Shown piece by piece: positions 1 through 14,049 of a DNA stretch of 64,000 bases. How positions within the stretch are numbered: the stretch's first letter is position 1; every line of letters begins with the position of its first letter. Origin of the DNA: Fimbriimonadales bacterium. GTDB lineage: Bacteria; Armatimonadota; Fimbriimonadia; Fimbriimonadales; ATM1. Under the pieces are notes generated by a model. That model saw nothing but the letters and a program-made list of their open reading frames with translations, was not told the origin of the DNA and did not search any database. The translations under genes were made by a program, and so were the position numbers. Location: contig JBGTLG010000039.1 of the NCBI GenBank assembly GCA_041744215.1, positions 32,001-96,000 on the forward strand, read 5' to 3'.

Positions 1-46
1 ACAGCCACCGCCGTATTGGCAACCAAACTGGAGTTGAAATCACAGC

Positions 47-3000
47 ATGCCCGACGTAACTCTTTTTGAAAAAATCCGTGTGGGAATTGCGAGCCCGGAA
101 GACGTTCTCGCATGGTCTCATGGCGAAGTAAAGAAGCCCGAGACCATCAACTATAGAACGTTCAAGCCGGAGCGTGATGGACTTTTCTGCGAGCGGATTT
201 TTGGACCGGTCAAAGACTGGGAGTGCCACTGCGGTCGATACAAGAAGGTCAAGTACAAGGGCATCGTGTGTGAGAGGTGTGGCGTCGAAGTCACCCGGTC
301 GCGCGTGCGCCGCGAGAGGATGGGTCACATCGAACTCGCGGCGCCCGTGTGTCACATTTGGTTTTTGAAGGGCGTCCCTTCGCCGGTTGCGCTTCTCCTA
401 AACATCGGACCACGCGATCTTGAAAAGGTCGTCTACTTTGGGTCGTTCATCGTCATCGACCTTGACAAAGTGGGCCTCGACGAGGGCCGGTCACAGATTG
501 AAGAACTAGTCGAGCTCGAAAAGTCCGCGCTCGAGCAAAGCATGGCTGAGCTTGAGGAAGAGATTCGCGACGCATTCGCCAGCGAGTTGGAGGAGAACAA
601 GGACGAGTATGACGAGTCAATCATCAAGGATCGCACGAAAGCGGTCAATGATCGGATAAAGGCCGAGCAGCGAGACTCCCAAGATCGCGTCAAAGAGATG
701 GATGTCGCGCTGGAAGTACTGTATAAGCTTGAGCAGAATCAACTGATCGAGGAAGACAAGTTCCGAGCTGTCGATCGGATGTTGAATGCTGTGTCCCGTC
801 GAAGCGGCAAGCAGTACAACCAGATGCTTAAAGCTGGCATCGGTGCGGCTGCGATCAAGGAGCTTCTGCTCCGGGTCAACCTCGACTCGACTTCCAAGGA
901 GCTTCGCGCAGGCATCATGCGGAGCCAAGGACCAAAGCGCGCGCGCATGATTAAGCGCCTCGAAATTGTCGAAGCGTTTATCAACTCGAAGACTAAGCCC
1001 GAGTGGATGGTCCTAGAGGTAATGCCCGTGATCTCGCCTGAGCTACGGCCCATGGTTCAGCTTGATGGCGGCCGGTTCGCGACATCCGATCTCAACGATC
1101 TCTACCGACGCATCATCAATCGGAACAATCGTCTGCGCAAGATTATAGAAATCCGGGCTCCTGAATCAATCATCAATCATGAGAAGCGTTTGCTGCAAGA
1201 AGCGGTAGACGCACTTGTCGATAATGGCCGTCGGTCCCGACCGGTGGTCGGCAGCAACAATCGTGCTTTGAAGTCCTTGAGCGACATGCTTAAAGGCAAA
1301 GAGGGACGGTTCCGAAAGAACTTGCTTGGAAAGCGTGTGGACTATTCTGGAAGAGCTGTCATTGTGGTGGGTCCTCACCTCAAGCTCCATCAATGCGGTT
1401 TGCCGAAAGAAATGGCGCTTGAGCTGTTCAAACCCTACGTGATGAAGGCGCTCGTGGACCAAAAGCTCACGCAGAACATCAAGACTGCGAAGCGCATGAT
1501 CGACCGAATGCACCCGGCAGTGTGGGATGCTCTTGAGGAAGTCATCAAAGATCACCCGGTGCTGCTTAACCGCGCTCCAACGCTCCACCGATTCGGCATT
1601 CAAGCCTTCGAACCGATCCTCGTCGACGGCAAGGCGATCCAGGTGCATCCACTCGTGTGTCCGCCCTTCAATGCGGATTTTGACGGTGACCAGATGGCCG
1701 TGCACGTTCCTCTCAGCGCTGCCGCACAGGCCGAAGCACGCATCCTAATGCTGTCGAGCAATAACCTGTTCTCGCCAGCGGATGGACAGCCGACGATGGC
1801 ACCGGTACAGGACATCATTCTTGGATCGTACGCACTAACTGCTCTCAACCGTAAAGCGCTTACGCGCTTCGAAGCGGAGACAGCTGCGCATCGGAAGGAT
1901 CCCGAAAAAGTGCGCGCACCGATGACGTTCTCGTCCCCTGACGAGGCAATCCTCCTTGCAACGCACCCAGATGCCGCGGTTCGGATTCCACTGAACGACC
2001 CCGTTTTCGTCCGTGTCCGACGTCCATCCGGATTAGCAAATGAAGCGGGCGAGTTCGAAGAGTGGGAGACTGTCGTGCGACAAATGACGCCCGGTCAGTT
2101 GATCTTCCACGAAGTGCTCCCGTACCCAGTAAAGCACCACGATGATTGGATTGGAGTCGAGTTCACAAAACGAAACCTGACTCGGCTCATCACTCACGTA
2201 CGCAACGCAACTTCAACGCAAAAGACTGTCGAGATGTTGGATCAAATCAAGGAGCTCGGATTCGAGTGGGCGACACGATACGGATTGACAATCGCGCTTT
2301 CGGACGTAGACCCGCGCTCCGCTCCAACTTCCGACCTATCGCTTGTCAATGAAATGGCACGGCGCGAAATCGCAGGTCAGGCCATCAGCCATGATATCGA
2401 GAAAGATTTTGAAACTGCAGGACGATTGAAGGGCCTGATTGAGGCTAAGATCGGCGAAGCTAAAAAGGCGACCACCGAAGTTCGAAAGCACTATCAGCTT
2501 GGCACGATGGCGACGAACGAGCGAGACCGAAAGCTACAAACGATTTGGCAGGGCGCGTTCGGAGCGCTGTCCGACACTATTGTTACGGAGATGGGGCAAT
2601 TCAACCCGCTTCGAATGATGGTCGACTCAGGCGCAAGGGGATCGCGTGAGCAGTTGGTTCAGCTGATGGCAACGCGCGGAATGTTCCGTAACAACTTCAA
2701 TCAGCCGATCACGGACATTGTAGGTGGCAACGGGTTGTTCGATGGCTCACGTGTGTTCGAGTACTTCGTGTCGATGTTCGGTGCCCGAAAGGGTGTCACG
2801 GATACCGCGCTCTTGATGGGTTACTCCGGATTCATCGCCCGCCGTCTCGTTGATGTGTCACACGACATCGTGATCAAAGCTGAGGACTGTGGCACCACCC
2901 AGGCCATCTACGTCGCGAAGATTATCAAAGAAGGGGACGTCGTTGAGCAACTCAGCATTCGATGCAAGGGTCGAACGTCGATTGAACGAGTTACATTGCC

Positions 3001-4762
3001 TGGCAGCAAGGAAGAAGTCGTGCTCTGCGAAGCTGGTGACGCCTTTGGCGACAAGGGTGCGGCGCTCTTAGACGAAGCCGACGCTCTCTATTACAAGCTT
3101 CGAAGCGATGCTCAAGAGGCGAAAGACGTCGATAAGGCGACCGAGAAAGTCGAGGCCGACTTCCGCAAACACGGCTTCCGCATTGGTGAGCACGGCGAGT
3201 TGCAGGTATCAATCAGGAGTCCGCTTACGTGCGATCTCGACAGCGGCATCTGTTCCAAGTGCTATGGCTGGGACCTCTCGACCAAGAAGTTCGCCGAGGT
3301 TGGCCTTGCAGTTGGCGTCATCGCAGGTGAAACGATGTCTGAACCTCTGTCTCAGTTGACGATGAGAACATTCCACCACGGCGGCGTTGCGACGGGCACG
3401 GTCCTTACTGGATACAACCAAGCTGGGCGAATGTACGGCACACTACACCAAGAGCTCAAGGTTGACCTCAAGACTGATGAGCTTGACGTGCATGAGATGC
3501 CGGACTTTATTGGTGAGCAGCGCGGCTTGCTCGATGAACTCACGGGGAAGGCCGAGCGGCTCAAGGCCGAAGCAGAGAAGCCGACAAAGAAGACTAAAAA
3601 GTCCTTGACGCCTCCTCCGCGAACCACAGCGAACCGTCAACTCGCTCGGGAGTTGGTGGAGCACTCGTTCTATCACTACGTAGGCATACCCTTCGTAGAG
3701 AGGCTTCTTGAAGCTCGTCGCGCGCCCAAGGGTGAGGCAGTCGTGTCTCGCTACGATGGTGTGGTCGACACAATCAAGGTCGGTCAGCTTGGTCGATGGA
3801 TTGTGATCCGGGCTATCGTCACCCCTGGGGAGCACGACATCGCTGGTAAGACGATCGCTGAGCGGGTCCTCCATCCAGAAACGAAAGAGACACTTATCGA
3901 AGCTGGCACAGAGATCAACAAGGCAGCTACCGACAAGCTTGCGAAGCACGGCGTGGAGAAGCTCACGATTTTCGAAGTGATCCTTCTTCCGAAGCGTCGA
4001 ATCCTTCTGGTTGAGACAGGCGACAAAGTCAAAGCGGGCGATCCTCTCACCCAGGGTCCGCTCGATCTTGGCAGCCTCCTCGAGTTCCGAGGAGTTCGCG
4101 CGGTGCAAGAATATCTGGTAAGTGAACTTCAGTCGATTTACAAGTCGAATGGCGTTAGCATCAACGACCGTCACTTGGAGGTCATCTGTCGCCAGATGCT
4201 GCGAAAGGTTCGCATAAAGGAAGGCGGTGACTCAAAGTTCTTGCCCGGCCAAATCATAGATCGATTCGCTTTCCGAAGAGAGAACGAACGTCTTCAGCAG
4301 ATGATTGCAGCGAAAGAAGAAGTCGAGTATGAGGACATTGAAACCAGCGACATGAAGAAACGGCTTCCGATTCCTGCCACGGCTGATGCAGTCATTCAGG
4401 GCATCACCGAAGCCGCCCTAACGACTGAGTCATTCCTATCGGCGGCCTCCGCGCAGAAGACTGTTCGTGTGCTTACAGACGCGGCCGTCAAGGGGCGCAC
4501 AGACGATCTAGTGGGCCTAAAGGAAAACGTGATCATTGGGCGGCTGATCCCCGCCGGATCAGGATTCCCGGCATACCGAAACATCGCCGTCAAGACGACG
4601 CGAGAGCCGGTGTGGGCAAAGGCTCCTATCACGGCACTCGCGAGTATGCAAGACCGCGAGGATGTGGAGGAGATCGAAGAATTCGACGAGAGCGATATCG
4701 GAGATATCCGATCGCTCGCTGAGAGCCTCGGCGCAGAACGCGTCGACGAAGCAGACGTTTAG
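47..4762 (+). CDS. rpoC: DNA-directed RNA polymerase subunit beta' (atypical bridge helix/trigger helices)
   Basis: KPETINYRT, Zn finger (CHCGRYK...CERC), [67 protein letters not shown] upstream. Confidence 0.99.
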
Positions 4763-12296: not shown

Positions 12297-12824
12297 ATGA
12301 CCACACTTCTCGCTACCCTCATCCTCTCGACCGGATTTGCGCCGGCCCAGGATCCAAACCCGCAGGTTTCCTTGACAATTCAGTCACGGGGAGAGATGGT
12401 CATTGAGCTTTTTCCGCAAGACGCGCCGAAAACTGTGGCCCAGTTTCTCAAACTGGTCAACAGTGGCTTCTACAACGGTGTTCTGTTTCACAGGGTTGAG
12501 AACTACCCCCGCCCGTTTATCGTGGTGACTGGTGATCCGTTGACCAAAACCCTTCCGCTGACCGACCCGCGAATTGGGACCGGGGGGAGCGGCAACACGC
12601 TTCTCTTCGAAAGCAACAAGCGCTCCTTTGCCAATGGAACCGTCGGGCTTGCTCGCGACCAGAAGGATAAGAACAGCGGAGACAGCCAGTTCTTCATCTG
12701 CAACGGCCCGCAGAAGTTTCTTGACGGCTCATACGTCGCGTTCGGGCAAGTCGTAAAGGGCATTGAGATTATCCCCAACATTGCGTTGGGTGATAAGGTT
12801 ACGTCGGTACGCCAAACTCGCTGA
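12297..12824 (+). CDS. Exported cyclophilin-type peptidyl-prolyl isomerase
   Basis: APKTVAQF, GFYNGVLFHRV, GTGGSG, SGDSQFFI, LDGSYVAFGQV; signal peptide; start taken at ATG 12297. Confidence 0.92.
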   Translation: MTTLLATLILSTGFAPAQDPNPQVSLTIQSRGEMVIELFPQDAPKTVAQFLKLVNSGFYNGVLFHRVENYPRPFIVVTGDPLTKTLPLTDPRIGTGGSGNTLLFESNKRSFANGTVGLARDQKDKNSGDSQFFICNGPQKFLDGSYVAFGQVVKGIEIIPNIALGDKVTSVRQTR

Positions 12825-12879
12825 TCAAGGCACTGCCCGATGGGATGCGGCCCCGGCACCCAGGTACCCTTCGGATCAG

Positions 12880-14049
12880 ATGCACTACATTGACCCATTC
12901 GGAAAGGACGACCTTGTCACGCTTCGAGCCATCCGTGAAGATCATTGTGTCTCGCTCTACCTGCCAACCCACCGGAAAGGGTCAGAGGTTGCTCAAGATC
13001 CCATTCGGCTTAAGAACCTGATTGCGCGAGCTGAGGAAGTCCTCAAGACCAGGGGAGCACGCTGGGACGTCATCGAATCCATCCTAGGCGAAGCGAAACA
13101 GCTTCTCGACAAGGAGTTTTTTTGGCAGCACCAGGCAGACGGTCTAGCGATATTCGCAAAACCAGGCGAAACACGAGCGTTTCGAACCGGAGTCGGCTTT
13201 GGCGAGGCGGTGACAGTGAGCGGTCGCTTTGACTTAGCGCAGATGGTTCGACTTCTCGCTTCCGATGGCCGATTCTACGTGCTCGCCCTGGGGGAGCAAA
13301 TGGTCAAGCTGCTGGAGGGTACGCGATTCAGCGTCTCCGAGATAGCGTTGGACAATCTGCCCCAATCCATTGACGACGCCCTCAAACTGGATGATCCTCA
13401 AAAGCAACTGCAGTACCATACGGGCGCAGGCGCCAGCTCCGGCGGCGGTAGAGCGGCAATCTTTCACGGACACCGATTCGATGGATCCGAAAACAAAGAG
13501 AACCTGAAGAGATTCTTCAACATCGTCGACCGCGGGCTGGAGCCCCTGTTTAAGCATTACCCTGCGCCGGTCGTCTTGGCTGCGGTGGAGTACTACTTCC
13601 CACTTTACTTGGAGGTCGCGAACATTCCGGGACTCGTCGAGGGCGGTATCAAAGGCAACCCCGACGTCATGCGAGACGAAGAGCTGCACAAGGCGGCTTG
13701 GAGCATCGTGTACCCAGCGTTCAAGAAGTCGCAGGAGGATGCACTGGAGCGTTACGCTCAAGTTATCGGTACCGGCCAAACTACACAGGGCGTGGAGGGC
13801 ACCGCGATAGCGGCATATCAAGGAAGGGTGGACACACTGTTCGTCGACACTGAGCCAGACGTTTGGGGCGAAATCGACGAAACAACCCAATCGGTCAGCA
13901 TCCACGAGGTTGAAAACGCAGGCGATCTCGAACTCGTCAATGAGACGACTCTTGCTGTTCTGACAAGCGGTGGAAGGGTGTTTACGATGCCAAGCGCAGA
14001 GGTTCCAGGCAGTGGCCCGATGGCCGCGATCCTTCGCTACGCTGGCTGA
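12880..14049 (+). CDS. Bacterial archaeo-eukaryotic release factor family protein (baeRF3/7-like)
   Basis: CVSLYLPTHR, DPIRLKNL, FWQHQADGLAIF, FYVLAL, AAYQGRVDTLFV, C-terminal AAILRY; start ATG 12880. Confidence 0.85.
   Translation: MHYIDPFGKDDLVTLRAIREDHCVSLYLPTHRKGSEVAQDPIRLKNLIARAEEVLKTRGARWDVIESILGEAKQLLDKEFFWQHQADGLAIFAKPGETRAFRTGVGFGEAVTVSGRFDLAQMVRLLASDGRFYVLALGEQMVKLLEGTRFSVSEIALDNLPQSIDDALKLDDPQKQLQYHTGAGASSGGGRAAIFHGHRFDGSENKENLKRFFNIVDRGLEPLFKHYPAPVVLAAVEYYFPLYLEVANIPGLVEGGIKGNPDVMRDEELHKAAWSIVYPAFKKSQEDALERYAQVIGTGQTTQGVEGTAIAAYQGRVDTLFVDTEPDVWGEIDETTQSVSIHEVENAGDLELVNETTLAVLTSGGRVFTMPSAEVPGSGPMAAILRYAG

Follow-up and report, generated by a model that had tools for sequence, protein, structure and literature searches.

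The window (the whole 64-kb stretch of DNA analysed) begins 46 nt 5' of rpoC, too close to show an upstream rpoB, and the product of this gene, P0001, can be assigned as a bacterial beta' subunit of the RpoC family on score, domain content and catalytic and Zn-binding residues. It scores 1375.2 bits against TIGR02386 rpoC, well above the equivalog cut-off of 963.5, and carries Rpb1 domains 1-5 in order (PF04997, PF00623, PF04983, PF05000 and PF04998, all above their cut-offs); its top PDB matches are bacterial beta' chains, with the C-half of these alignments scoring much below the N-half. Aligned to the fetched E. coli rpoC, the protein keeps R425, N458/D460/D462/D464 and trigger-loop Q929 through H936, and the catalytic NADFDGD triad, the two Zn sites and trigger-loop M932/R933/H936 are present in the window and in 100% of the rows of the clade described below. 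An earlier, sequence-only reading of this DNA had called both Zn sites, NADFDGD and the trigger-loop residues intact, as the alignment confirmed, and all of the motif strings it quoted were recovered in the translation of P0001 where it had placed them.

Table 1. The rpoC gene and its elements, with positions in the window; substitutions in E. coli numbering
Feature	Position	Strand	Basis
rpoC, RNA polymerase beta' subunit, P0001	47..4762	+	stop-free ORF, 1571 aa
N-terminal Zn site C60, C62, C75, C78, intact	224..280	+	aligned to E. coli C70, C72, C85, C88
Catalytic NADFDGD, aa 542-548, intact	1670..1690	+	string found and alignment
F-loop, aa 872-900, rewritten	2660..2746	+	quoted string and alignment
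Bridge helix, aa 906-940, central face rewritten	2762..2866	+	quoted string and alignment
Span with second Zn site C948, C1062, C1069, C1072, intact	2888..3262	+	aligned to E. coli C814, C888, C895, C898
Trigger helix 1, aa 1092-1110, base rewritten	3320..3376	+	quoted string and alignment
Trigger-loop insertion, about 100 aa, charged, predicted mostly helical	3377..3670	+	insertion lengths by group; model
Trigger helix 2, aa 1209-1224, with R1140F, E/D1143R, F1145L	3671..3718	+	quoted string and alignment
Region H / switch-1 segment SAASAQKT, aa 1465-1472, with F1325A	4439..4462	+	quoted string and alignment

The surroundings are those of an ordinary chromosome (ligA, glmS, rnpA, yidC, recJ, ispG, gpsA), and the gene order rpoC-hyp-OGG-ligA is common to the window and to locus L001, where the 840 nt upstream of rpoC hold just a small basic ORF. 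It had been proposed that rpoB should be sought upstream, and in the clade relative L002 it does lie there, separated from rpoC by a small ORF; this rpoB carries a frameshift and masked bases. No second rpoC was found in the 64-kb window.

In the F-loop the changes are G742A, M743T, L746M, M747F, P758V and F763L, together with L767S (aa 901), and 8 of the 15 conserved positions of aa 866-905 are altered. The bridge helix has 10 of 29 conserved positions altered and reads T776M, H777F, L783V, A784T, K/R789L, T790M, A791G, D/N792Y, Y795F, L796I, T797A and Q805H, while F773, G778, R780, K781, G782, D785, T786, R798 and R799 are retained. At the base of trigger helix 1 (6/23) we find Q921E, S922T, I923M, G924S, G927L and T928S, and the substrate-contacting residues Q929, L930, T931, M932, R933, T934, F935 and H936 are all retained. 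The E. coli positions that the earlier reading had given hold against E. coli rpoC, both in the bridge helix (H777F, K789L, T790M, A791G, N792Y, Y795F, L796I, T797A) and in the trigger helices (G924S, G927L, R1140F). Its description of the two remaining elements was borne out in part. In trigger helix 2 (3 of 8 conserved positions altered) R1140F, E/D1143R and F1145L are clade-specific at conserved sites, but the N-terminal YHYVG of the quoted string, which adjoins a trigger-loop insertion varying phylum-wide, did not stand as such a change; in SAASAQKT, which we take to be switch 1, F1325A is clade-specific, as is T1329V just after it, but the K occurs throughout the phylum. S1313A and L1306I also lie near this segment, and 3 of the 20 conserved positions of aa 1455-1480 are altered.

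Across the rewritten module basic residues are lost at 789 and 1140 and gained at 1143, and acidic ones are lost at 792 and gained at 921; three glycines are replaced (G742A, G924S, G927L) and A791G places a new one in the helix. Position 779 is A in the window and T in 12 of 13 clade rows. The trigger-loop insertion is common to canonical Fimbriimonadales and is not specific to the clade; AlphaFold2 predicts helices in it at model residues 326-344, 355-367 and 369-377. The bridge helix is likewise predicted to be helical with a break at G912, as in a canonical control, but the models are uninformative on the module because the F-loop and the N-terminal bridge helix are of low confidence in both the window protein and the control.

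Clustering, rarity and tempo of the changes

The variant is carried by 11 clusters at 90% identity (P0001-P0011), all from Fimbriimonadales/Armatimonadota MAGs, and all motifs also occur in the partial locus L005 and in three fragments (P0243, P0392, P0393). L001 is identical to P0004, which makes one duplicate among the clade rows, and L002 is 95% identical to P0011; full-length identity inside the clade is 0.65-0.92. The host group is a small set of soil-type bacteria of the order Fimbriimonadales.

As a conserved-site set we used the 455 beta' positions with at least 90% conservation across 173 non-clade sequences, an outgroup that is mostly Armatimonadota and Firmicutes. The clade has changed 40 of these 455 positions, and they are far from evenly placed: 30 of 95 in the F-loop, bridge helix, trigger helices and switch 1, compared with 10 of the 360 outside them (odds ratio 16, p = 1e-14, Fisher), with only 5 of 274 in aa 1-800. 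The claim that divergence is not spread over the whole protein is upheld by this comparison. At the stricter level of invariance (at least 99.5% in the 173 sequences) there are 68 positions, and the 10 that the clade has changed, T790, Y795, L796, G924 and G927 among them, all fall in the F-loop, bridge helix or trigger helix 1. The protein thus departs from the canonical bridge-helix/trigger-helix/F-loop consensus, a family hallmark but no formal criterion, and we class the beta' of the window as a variant and not as an ordinary RpoC member because 30 of the 95 conserved module positions are replaced.

A phmmer scan of aa 860-945 against 1.84e9 (1.84 billion) representatives returned clade matches at 160 and 114 bits, and the only other match above 70 bits, P0244 (99.7 bits), is a canonical fragment with a duplicated segment. 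The window's residues at T790, Y795 and T797 were never seen among the 149 best non-clade matches, in all of which (149/149) these positions are canonical. Whether the same substitutions are common in other RpoCs had been named as a check, and they are absent from the 173 other beta' sequences as well as from these 149. Phage and plasmid records held no close relatives (best at most 38% identity). Among the 1.84 billion representatives scanned, the variant module is restricted to one Fimbriimonadales/Armatimonadota clade.

The module differs from the rest of the protein in tempo as well. Identity to the nearest canonical relatives (the 'near' group) is 0.85 over aa 1-145 and 300-600, the conserved N-terminal core, and 0.50 in the module; module identity is 0.95 inside the clade, about 0.50 to all others and 0.74-0.87 between canonical groups, and the 'near' relatives themselves share 0.87 with other Armatimonadota and 0.77 with Firmicutes. 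For the remainder of the C-half, clade and 'near' group are 0.59 identical, and canonical groups are 0.57-0.64 identical to each other. FastTree gives stem/crown lengths of 0.059/0.117 for the N-terminal core, 0.762/0.070 for the module and 0.310/0.513 for the rest of the C-half, the ratio being about 11 for the module and 0.5-0.6 for the other two. All three trees recover the clade as monophyletic; its sister is the canonical 'near' group in the N-terminal core and rest-of-C-half trees, and one unrelated tip, P0097, in the module tree. Within the clade, four DNA sequences differ over 154 module codons by 4-11 amino acids as against 75-94 synonymous-only codon differences, and dN, at 0.04-0.075, is lower in the module than in the N-half (0.15-0.22) or the remaining C-half (0.31-0.43). 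The active-centre module therefore changed in a burst on the stem and then froze in the crown, where it is the part of beta' under the strongest constraint and under strong purifying selection. Positive selection on the stem and relaxed constraint followed by compensation are indistinguishable here because dS is saturated.

The partner subunit and published contacts

Compensating changes in fork loop 2 of beta had been suggested as a further check, and matching changes were indeed found in beta 534-572 (E. coli numbering). The rpoB clade, P0123-P0135, was set by identity to the rpoB of L002; it is joined to the rpoC clade directly in L002, and two more pairs, those of P0001 and P0002, are joined by equal contig size, clade rpoB clusters lying on contigs of 180332 (P0126) and 818458 bases and the P0001 and P0002 contigs being equal to them. 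The beta subunit has changed 28 of 462 conserved positions, 8 of 30 within 534-572 (p = 1.5e-4), and all seven of its changed invariant positions lie in this stretch (G534P, L538S, V547Q, D549E, H551Q, H554E, I572M). Fork loop 2, canonically LGPGGL, has become LP(D/E)RRPSASG, with additional residues, and the beta streptolydigin segments STL1/STL2 are changed at L538S, V547Q, D549E, H551Q, I569V and I572M. On these alignments the two large subunits, beta' and beta, co-vary.

Going by published contact descriptions, the changed residues would touch one another in three dimensions. As set out in a portion of PMC3077646, bridge helix 773-780 adjoins fork loop 2, K789 contacts trigger-loop L930, T790 occupies the i+1 site and K781 makes contacts to both the F-loop and beta D-loop II; looser contacts between bridge helix and beta lead, in the relevant extract of PMC3959191, to altered catalysis, translocation and pausing. 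The streptolydigin site is described in part of PMC3957892 as beta 538-552, beta 557-576, the bridge helix and the trigger loop, with beta' D792 critical and D792G resistant. Salinamide-resistance sites include, in an excerpt of PMC4029172, beta' 758, 763, 779 and 783 and beta 569, 675 and 677, and one substitution is enough for resistance in E. coli.

Position 792 of beta' is Tyr in 100% of clade rows, and since the formerly acidic residue is now Tyr and both beta segments of the site are changed, we infer that the enzyme has an intrinsic insensitivity to inhibitors of the streptolydigin type. Its response to salinamide- or CBR-type compounds has probably shifted as well, given that sites mapped for resistance or contact are changed (beta' 758, 763, 783 and, in most members, 779; beta 569).

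Identity of the enzyme and rival explanations

We think it probable that P0001 is the sole housekeeping beta' of a family-level lineage of Fimbriimonadales, in which the module was rewritten as a unit on the stem and has since been constrained as tightly as the old version. The sequence-only reading had left two alternatives, a lineage with an unusual core RNAP or a specialised second beta', and of these we favour the former; those of its proposed checks that were run all gave the outcome it had anticipated. In the proposed stem event the bridge helix, both trigger-helix bases, the F-loop and a switch-1 residue would have been rewritten together, along with the facing beta surface (fork loop 2 and the next segment, 534-572, plus 672/676), and the new module version would then have come under constraint as tight as that on the old one. 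An active polymerase with the ordinary two-metal and trigger-loop-closure mechanism is to be expected because the chemistry and substrate residues are kept (NADFDGD, beta' R425, Q929 to H936, R780, K781, D785, T786, R798, R799). What would be altered is the packing and charge pattern at the bridge-helix/trigger-helix/fork-loop interface, and we infer from the substitutions that the coupling of bridge helix, trigger loop and beta, which would control translocation, pausing and fidelity, is set differently from canonical enzymes. Somewhat more tentatively, all transcription in this free-living lineage might run on a second stable solution of the translocation and closure machinery, with different kinetics and an intrinsic insensitivity to several inhibitor classes; if true, the lineage would provide the first natural case of a nucleotide-addition cycle with 'alternative wiring' in the housekeeping RNAP of a cell.

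Alternatively, the cause of the rewrite could have been target-site resistance in an ancestor to a natural product binding at the bridge helix and trigger loop, for instance a tetramic acid resembling streptolydigin or tirandamycin or a peptide resembling salinamide, followed by compensatory changes at the interface. The changes do span the streptolydigin site in its bridge-helix segment, 792 included, and in its two beta segments, and five salinamide-resistance positions are changed (beta' 758, 763, 783 and, in 12 of 13 rows, 779; beta 569). Furthermore, beta 513 and 526 in the rifampicin region, which we take to be resistance positions, differ from E. coli in canonical and variant Fimbriimonadales alike. 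We nevertheless consider a resistance origin unlikely, as some 40 co-ordinated changes far exceed the need where single substitutions suffice in E. coli (PMC4029172, in part), A779 is retained in the window, and there is no known producer or exposure.

A specialised second core polymerase, kept beside a canonical pair for some genes or conditions, is considerably less probable again. In its favour, beta and beta' have changed as a matched set, as a dedicated paralogous core would need, and no rpoC, whole or fragment, could be tied to the 2.23-Mb contig that carries the clade-type rpoB P0131. A scan with the exact peptide VKDWECHC gave no second locus among the matches listed for three clade species genomes of a GTDB-based collection, at a sensitivity of about 50% at best (the peptide occurs in 3/7 'near' and 37/65 other Armatimonadota beta' sequences). 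Against such a paralogue, the 180-kb, 818-kb and 2.23-Mb contigs each have only one rpoB cluster among the best 120 matches, a list in which a canonical paralogue at the distance of the 'near' group should appear; the window holds no further copy, and the neighbourhood is housekeeping and syntenic with L001. Outside the module the clade is an ordinary sister of canonical Fimbriimonadales, with an ordinary N-terminal core stem, and constraint within the protein is highest in the module, as expected of an essential enzyme. It is harder still to credit that beta' has simply drifted as a whole in a fast lineage, with only its famous motifs noticed. The C-half outside the module is fairly divergent from the 'near' group, and the PDB alignments weaken there, but 0.59 is within the canonical between-group range and the module is the outlier; whole-protein drift is contradicted by the clustering test, the partition identities and the stem/crown lengths. 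To an assembly or binning artefact, or a decaying pseudogene, we give next to no weight. The data are metagenome-assembled, and the L002 rpoB has its frameshift and masked bases, but the 1571-codon frame is intact, the same residues recur in 11 clusters and in fragments from several sources, and module dN is low while synonymous sites are saturated; this independent recurrence and the purifying selection dispose of the assembly error that had been raised as a check.

Relation to known polymerases

Canonical RpoC (E. coli, Thermus, Mycobacterium) shares with our lineage the domain order, TIGR02386, NADFDGD, the Zn sites, R425 and the trigger-loop substrate residues, as well as rpoB upstream in a clade relative; it differs at 40 positions of the conserved-site set, of which the module accounts for 30, and in a partner beta with LGPGGL in fork loop 2. 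Divergent bridge helices and trigger loops are tolerated in specialised polymerases such as plant Pol IV/V and phage multisubunit RNAPs. Those enzymes are additional and specialised, whereas the clade enzyme appears to be the main one and keeps all catalytic trigger-loop residues.

Natural substitutions in mobile active-site elements of a housekeeping enzyme are known from Deinococcus, where trigger-loop substitutions raise intrinsic RNA cleavage (PMC4756841, in part), and from cyanobacteria, where intrinsic hydrolysis is high without Gre factors (PMC7026648, in part), and there a kinetic property has changed. In the parts of these accounts that bear on the question a few trigger-loop positions are involved, whereas in the clade four beta' elements and beta have together changed at dozens of otherwise invariant positions. 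The Pol II active site shows epistasis in the pertinent extract of PMC12391331, and active-centre residues evolving as interdependent sets are a further likeness. The same interface is touched by E. coli laboratory mutants (beta' F773V, P750L, H777A; beta V550A; Sal-, Stl- and CBR-resistant alleles), with beta' 758, 763, 777, 779, 783 and 792 and beta 569 common to clade and mutants; in the mutants, however, one change is involved each time, and growth or regulation is often impaired, as compared to a naturally fixed, multi-site, two-subunit set under purifying selection.

The bridge helix, trigger loop and fork loop 2 rank among the most conserved protein segments in biology, and models of translocation, pausing and fidelity, like several antibiotic programmes (on streptolydigin, salinamide, CBR and related compounds), presume that this module hardly varies. 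The clade polymerase would be a second, natural form of a machine for which just one was believed possible, and it could be used to probe how much re-tuning the ratchet allows. Its approximately 40 beta' changes and 10 facing beta changes would amount to an evolution-validated multi-site suppressor set, showing which contacts must co-vary, and they carry a warning that target-site insensitivity to this inhibitor class may already exist in environmental bacteria. Whether mechanism or historical lock-in through epistasis is the cause of the conservation becomes directly testable, with sister enzymes for that test that are 85% identical in the conserved N-terminal core.

The rewritten module in the two large subunits

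The rpoC gene of the window encodes a beta' subunit (P0001) in which all five Rpb1 domains were detected with Pfam, which scores 1375 bits against a cut-off of 963.5 for the NCBIfam rpoC equivalog, and whose closest solved relatives in a PDB search are bacterial beta' chains. The PDB alignments gave a first sign of uneven divergence, with 574-799 bits over the N-terminal half versus ~60-170 bits for each of the C-terminal pieces. The unusual motifs quoted by an earlier sequence-only reading were all found in the P0001 translation at the positions it assigned to them. Its observation that these motifs are rewritten is confirmed, and all checks that could be made support its interpretation as co-evolved re-engineering. 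In this bacterial core polymerase of one Fimbriimonadales clade, a module of bridge helix, trigger helices, F-loop and fork loop 2 underwent a co-ordinated rewrite across the two large subunits and was afterwards fixed.

We aligned 186 beta' sequences, namely 13 rows of the clade carrying the variant (one a duplicate) and 173 from outside the clade. About 105 of the latter are Armatimonadota, and the remainder are Firmicutes and various further phyla represented in the loci, among them E. coli for numbering. A column was called changed when it was at least 90% conserved in the 173 others and the clade had a different, internally conserved residue. By this measure 40 of 455 conserved columns are changed, and the divergence is clustered rather than uniform, as had been claimed: 30 of the 95 conserved columns in the five elements named by that reading are changed (F-loop 8/15, bridge helix 10/29, trigger helix 1 6/23, trigger helix 2 3/8, switch-1 segment 3/20) versus 10 of 360 elsewhere (Fisher odds ratio 16, p = 1e-14). 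Residues 1-800 account for 5 changes among 274 conserved columns. Ten of 68 columns invariant in the outgroup are changed (G742A, P758V, L767S, T790M, Y795F, L796I, S922T, G924S, G927L and T928S), all within the F-loop, bridge helix or trigger helix 1. The clade retains the residues that bind metal, substrate or nucleic acid, namely NADFDGD, R425, both Zn sites, F773, R780, K781, D785, T786, R798 and R799 of the bridge helix, and Q929 to H936 of the trigger loop.

The protein also carries insertions. Its match to Pfam Rpb1 domain 1 is 420 residues long for a 312-position profile, and together with gaps from domain 3 to domain 4 this indicates further N-terminal-half insertions in the lineage; those at residues ~146-250 and ~600-800 are charged, coiled-coil-like and common to canonical Armatimonadota. 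The trigger-loop insertion is likewise charged and predicted to be helical. Insertions at this site measure ~100 residues in the Fimbriimonadales type, ~64 in most other Armatimonadota, 11-13 in Firmicutes and 200 in E. coli, and we do not count this one as part of the novelty since the canonical relatives have it too.

The partner subunit is encoded by rpoB, which lies just upstream of rpoC in almost every locus retrieved, that of the clade member L002 included. The L002 rpoB has a frameshift or short deletion at a conserved AIIxSERLV segment and a masked stretch close to the 3' end; these breaks are probably assembly noise, and they leave the sole clade rpoB seen in genomic context imperfect. 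Used as a query, it retrieved 13 clusters that are 65-97% identical to it, below which identity falls off smoothly (59, 57, 54, 52%); two of the 13 are on contigs of 180332 and 818458 bases, sizes equal to those of the contigs bearing the clade rpoC clusters P0001 and P0002. Measured against 167 beta sequences from outside the clade, 28 of 462 conserved columns differ in the clade, 8 of them among the 30 in E. coli beta 534-572 (p = 1.5e-4), and all seven changed invariant columns (G534P, L538S, V547Q, D549E, H551Q, H554E, I572M) fall inside that segment; E672N and A676G nearby are also changed. The compensating changes that had been anticipated in fork loop 2 are therefore present, the universal LGPGGLxRxxAxxEVRDVHxSHYG being rewritten as LP(D/E)RRPSASGRAGVVDAQREVQPSEYG with extra residues.

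In the rifampicin region, variant and canonical Fimbriimonadales rpoB alike (e.g., P0123-P0149, L004, L006) read ...QLS(T/S)(F/Y)MDQTNPLSEL(T/S)NKRRLS..., which corresponds to Q513T/S and H526N in E. coli beta, at two positions we take to be sites of rifampicin resistance. Q510H and T525S are found in the clade alone.

Distribution and tempo of the variant

Ten more 90%-identity clusters, 62-87% identical to the query, were recovered with residues 800-1571; identity then falls to 47% at the next match, and the named sources of the clade clusters are Fimbriimonadales or Armatimonadetes MAGs. In an alignment of 120 matches the variant F-loop, bridge helix, trigger helices and SAASAQKT occur in P0001-P0011 only, and every sequence from P0012 onward has a canonical YF(V/I)-type bridge helix. 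Among the matches listed for species-representative genomes the variant appears at three loci only: L001 (identical to P0004), L002 (95% identical to P0011) and the partial L005. The closest canonical relatives among those matches are at loci L003, L004 and L006. A search of shorter proteins added three more clade fragments. When residues 860-945 were run with phmmer against 1.84 billion cluster representatives, a clade representative scored 160 bits and a clade fragment 114 bits, and all others scored at most 70 bits, save one canonical fragment (P0244) double-scored through an internal duplication. In this 172-residue metagenomic fragment the F-loop/bridge-helix segment stands twice in tandem, probably as an assembly artefact.

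In the 149 non-clade phmmer matches, the most query-like, the canonical T790, Y795 and T797 are present in 149 of 149, L796 in 147 and A791 in 145, and the residue of the window was never found at any of these five positions. The canonical relative L006 has the bridge helix YFVSTYGARKG, that is, H777Y alone, and this is the sole partial step to the clade state in any non-clade sequence seen. A search of full-text literature open without subscription found no prior description of the variant, only known cases of lineage-specific tuning. No close match came from phage and plasmid collections; their distant matches are at most 38% identical and appear to be host rpoC, and on these grounds a mobile origin was rejected.

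The tempo of change differs sharply along the protein. In the N-terminal core, clade members and their closest canonical group have a mean pairwise identity of 0.85, equal to that of canonical Armatimonadota groups among themselves; in the module it is 0.50, as compared to 0.74-0.87 among canonical Armatimonadota, 0.71-0.80 between these and Firmicutes, and 0.95 inside the clade. FastTree recovered the clade in all three partitions, with a stem of 0.059 and a mean crown depth of 0.117 for the N-terminal core, 0.762 and 0.070 for the module, and 0.310 and 0.513 for the rest of the C-half. The closest canonical group is its sister in the core and C-rest trees, and a lone unrelated tip, P0097, is its sister in the module tree. 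Across 154 module codons in four DNA sequences (window, L001, L002, L005) there are 4-11 amino-acid differences and 75-94 codons that differ by synonymous changes only, and dN rises from 0.04-0.075 in the module to 0.15-0.22 in the N-half and to 0.31-0.43 in the remaining C-half; dS is saturated even inside the clade, so that dN/dS for the stem is not computable. The module thus underwent a burst of change on the stem, and no other part of the protein has been as tightly constrained since then; assembly error, pseudogenisation and evenly fast evolution are thereby ruled out.

An AlphaFold2 model of residues 800-1571 (pLDDT 77.2) has a helical bridge helix broken at G912 (E. coli G778) and helical trigger helices and trigger-loop insertion; its F-loop and the N-terminal part of its bridge helix are of low confidence. 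The control, a canonical L004 fragment modelled from the same alignment (pLDDT 77.3), has the same helix layout and the same low-confidence parts, so that the comparison, in which no loss of fold was seen, discriminates nothing and neither supports nor questions the rewiring.

Predicted function and alternative readings

The E. coli bridge-helix map (PMC3077646) places residues 773-780 against fork loop 2, with H777 as a hinge position and K781 in contact with the F-loop and beta D-loop II; in the same map K789 touches L930 of the trigger loop, and T790 is found at the i+1 nucleotide. According to another study (PMC3959191), substitutions that weaken contacts between bridge helix and beta give faster catalysis, slower forward translocation and blunted pausing. 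Among the salinamide-resistance sites are beta' 758, 763, 779 and 783, and in beta 569, 675 and 677 (PMC4029172), and the streptolydigin site is formed by two beta segments (538-552 and 557-576) together with the bridge helix and trigger loop (PMC3957892), with an acidic residue required at beta' 792 and strong resistance in D792G. By alignment, the clade changes fall on exactly the surfaces named in these studies. The charge pattern is exchanged in the clade, not lost (R/K789L, R1140F, E/D1143R, D/N792Y, Q921E), and such swapped charges would have the look of compensated co-evolution. On good grounds, but as predictions and not as results, the enzyme would show altered translocation and pausing and be intrinsically insensitive to inhibitors of the streptolydigin class. 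That an inhibitor drove the change is a question of cause, separate from that of identity, and we regard it as unlikely.

Alternatively, the clade genomes might also carry a canonical rpoBC pair, so that the variant would be a specialised core, as the sequence-only reading had allowed. No second rpoC was found within the 64-kb window, and a scan of genome contigs found one locus per clade genome among the matches listed, weak evidence given that roughly one in two canonical copies would escape its patterns. This limited power leaves some room for a canonical pair, as does a 2.23-Mb contig (2232626 bases) bearing a clade-type rpoB (P0131), for which no rpoC cluster, full-length or fragmentary, was found among the cluster listings and no split rpoC among the shorter proteins; either the contig record of the clusters is incomplete or this rpoC is unpredicted or broken. 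Against it stand the normal phylogenetic position and normal N-terminal divergence of the clade beta', the housekeeping setting of its gene, three long contigs with only one rpoB cluster apiece among the best 120 matches, and the three species genomes with no second locus among the matches listed. We consider a second, canonical pair very unlikely, and favor the variant as the core polymerase of this clade.

Genomic setting

The window is otherwise ordinary chromosome, with genes for an OGG-like glycosylase, ligA, glmS, rnpA, yidC, jag, recJ, ispG, gpsA, rpiB and an ECF sigma factor, and the order rpoC - hypothetical - OGG - ligA is common to the window and L001.

Coordinates of features in the window and in related loci
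Feature	Sequence	Position	Strand	Remark
rpoC, beta', 1571 aa (P0001)	window	47-4762	+	one open frame, ATG at 47, preceded by 46 nt
trigger-loop insertion	window	3377-3670		aa 1111-1208
baeRF-like protein	window	12763-14046	+	428 aa
rpoC, canonical relative	L006	6276-10961
rpoB, frameshift or short deletion	L002	near 8016
rpoB, masked-base run	L002	about 9520
small basic gene between rpoB and rpoC	L004	9349-9972	+
small basic gene between rpoB and rpoC	L002	9673-9972	+
small basic gene between rpoB and rpoC	L001	57-824	+
position of small basic gene	window	1-46		only this part lies in the window

A small gene lies between rpoB and rpoC in canonical and variant Fimbriimonadales alike. Its product starts with the conserved sequence MAxV(R/M)FVF... 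and continues into a strongly basic tail of AT-hook-like or Lys/Ala-rich repeats (RGRPPK or KKATTAKKATGAKRGRKPAA), and in L001 it has a weak Pfam match to HC2 (histone H1-like); such features suggest a putative DNA-binding protein, which would be unusual inside an rpoBC operon. Further downstream in the window is a protein resembling the bacterial archaeo-eukaryotic release factors (baeRF family 3 at 1.7e-42, and family 7).
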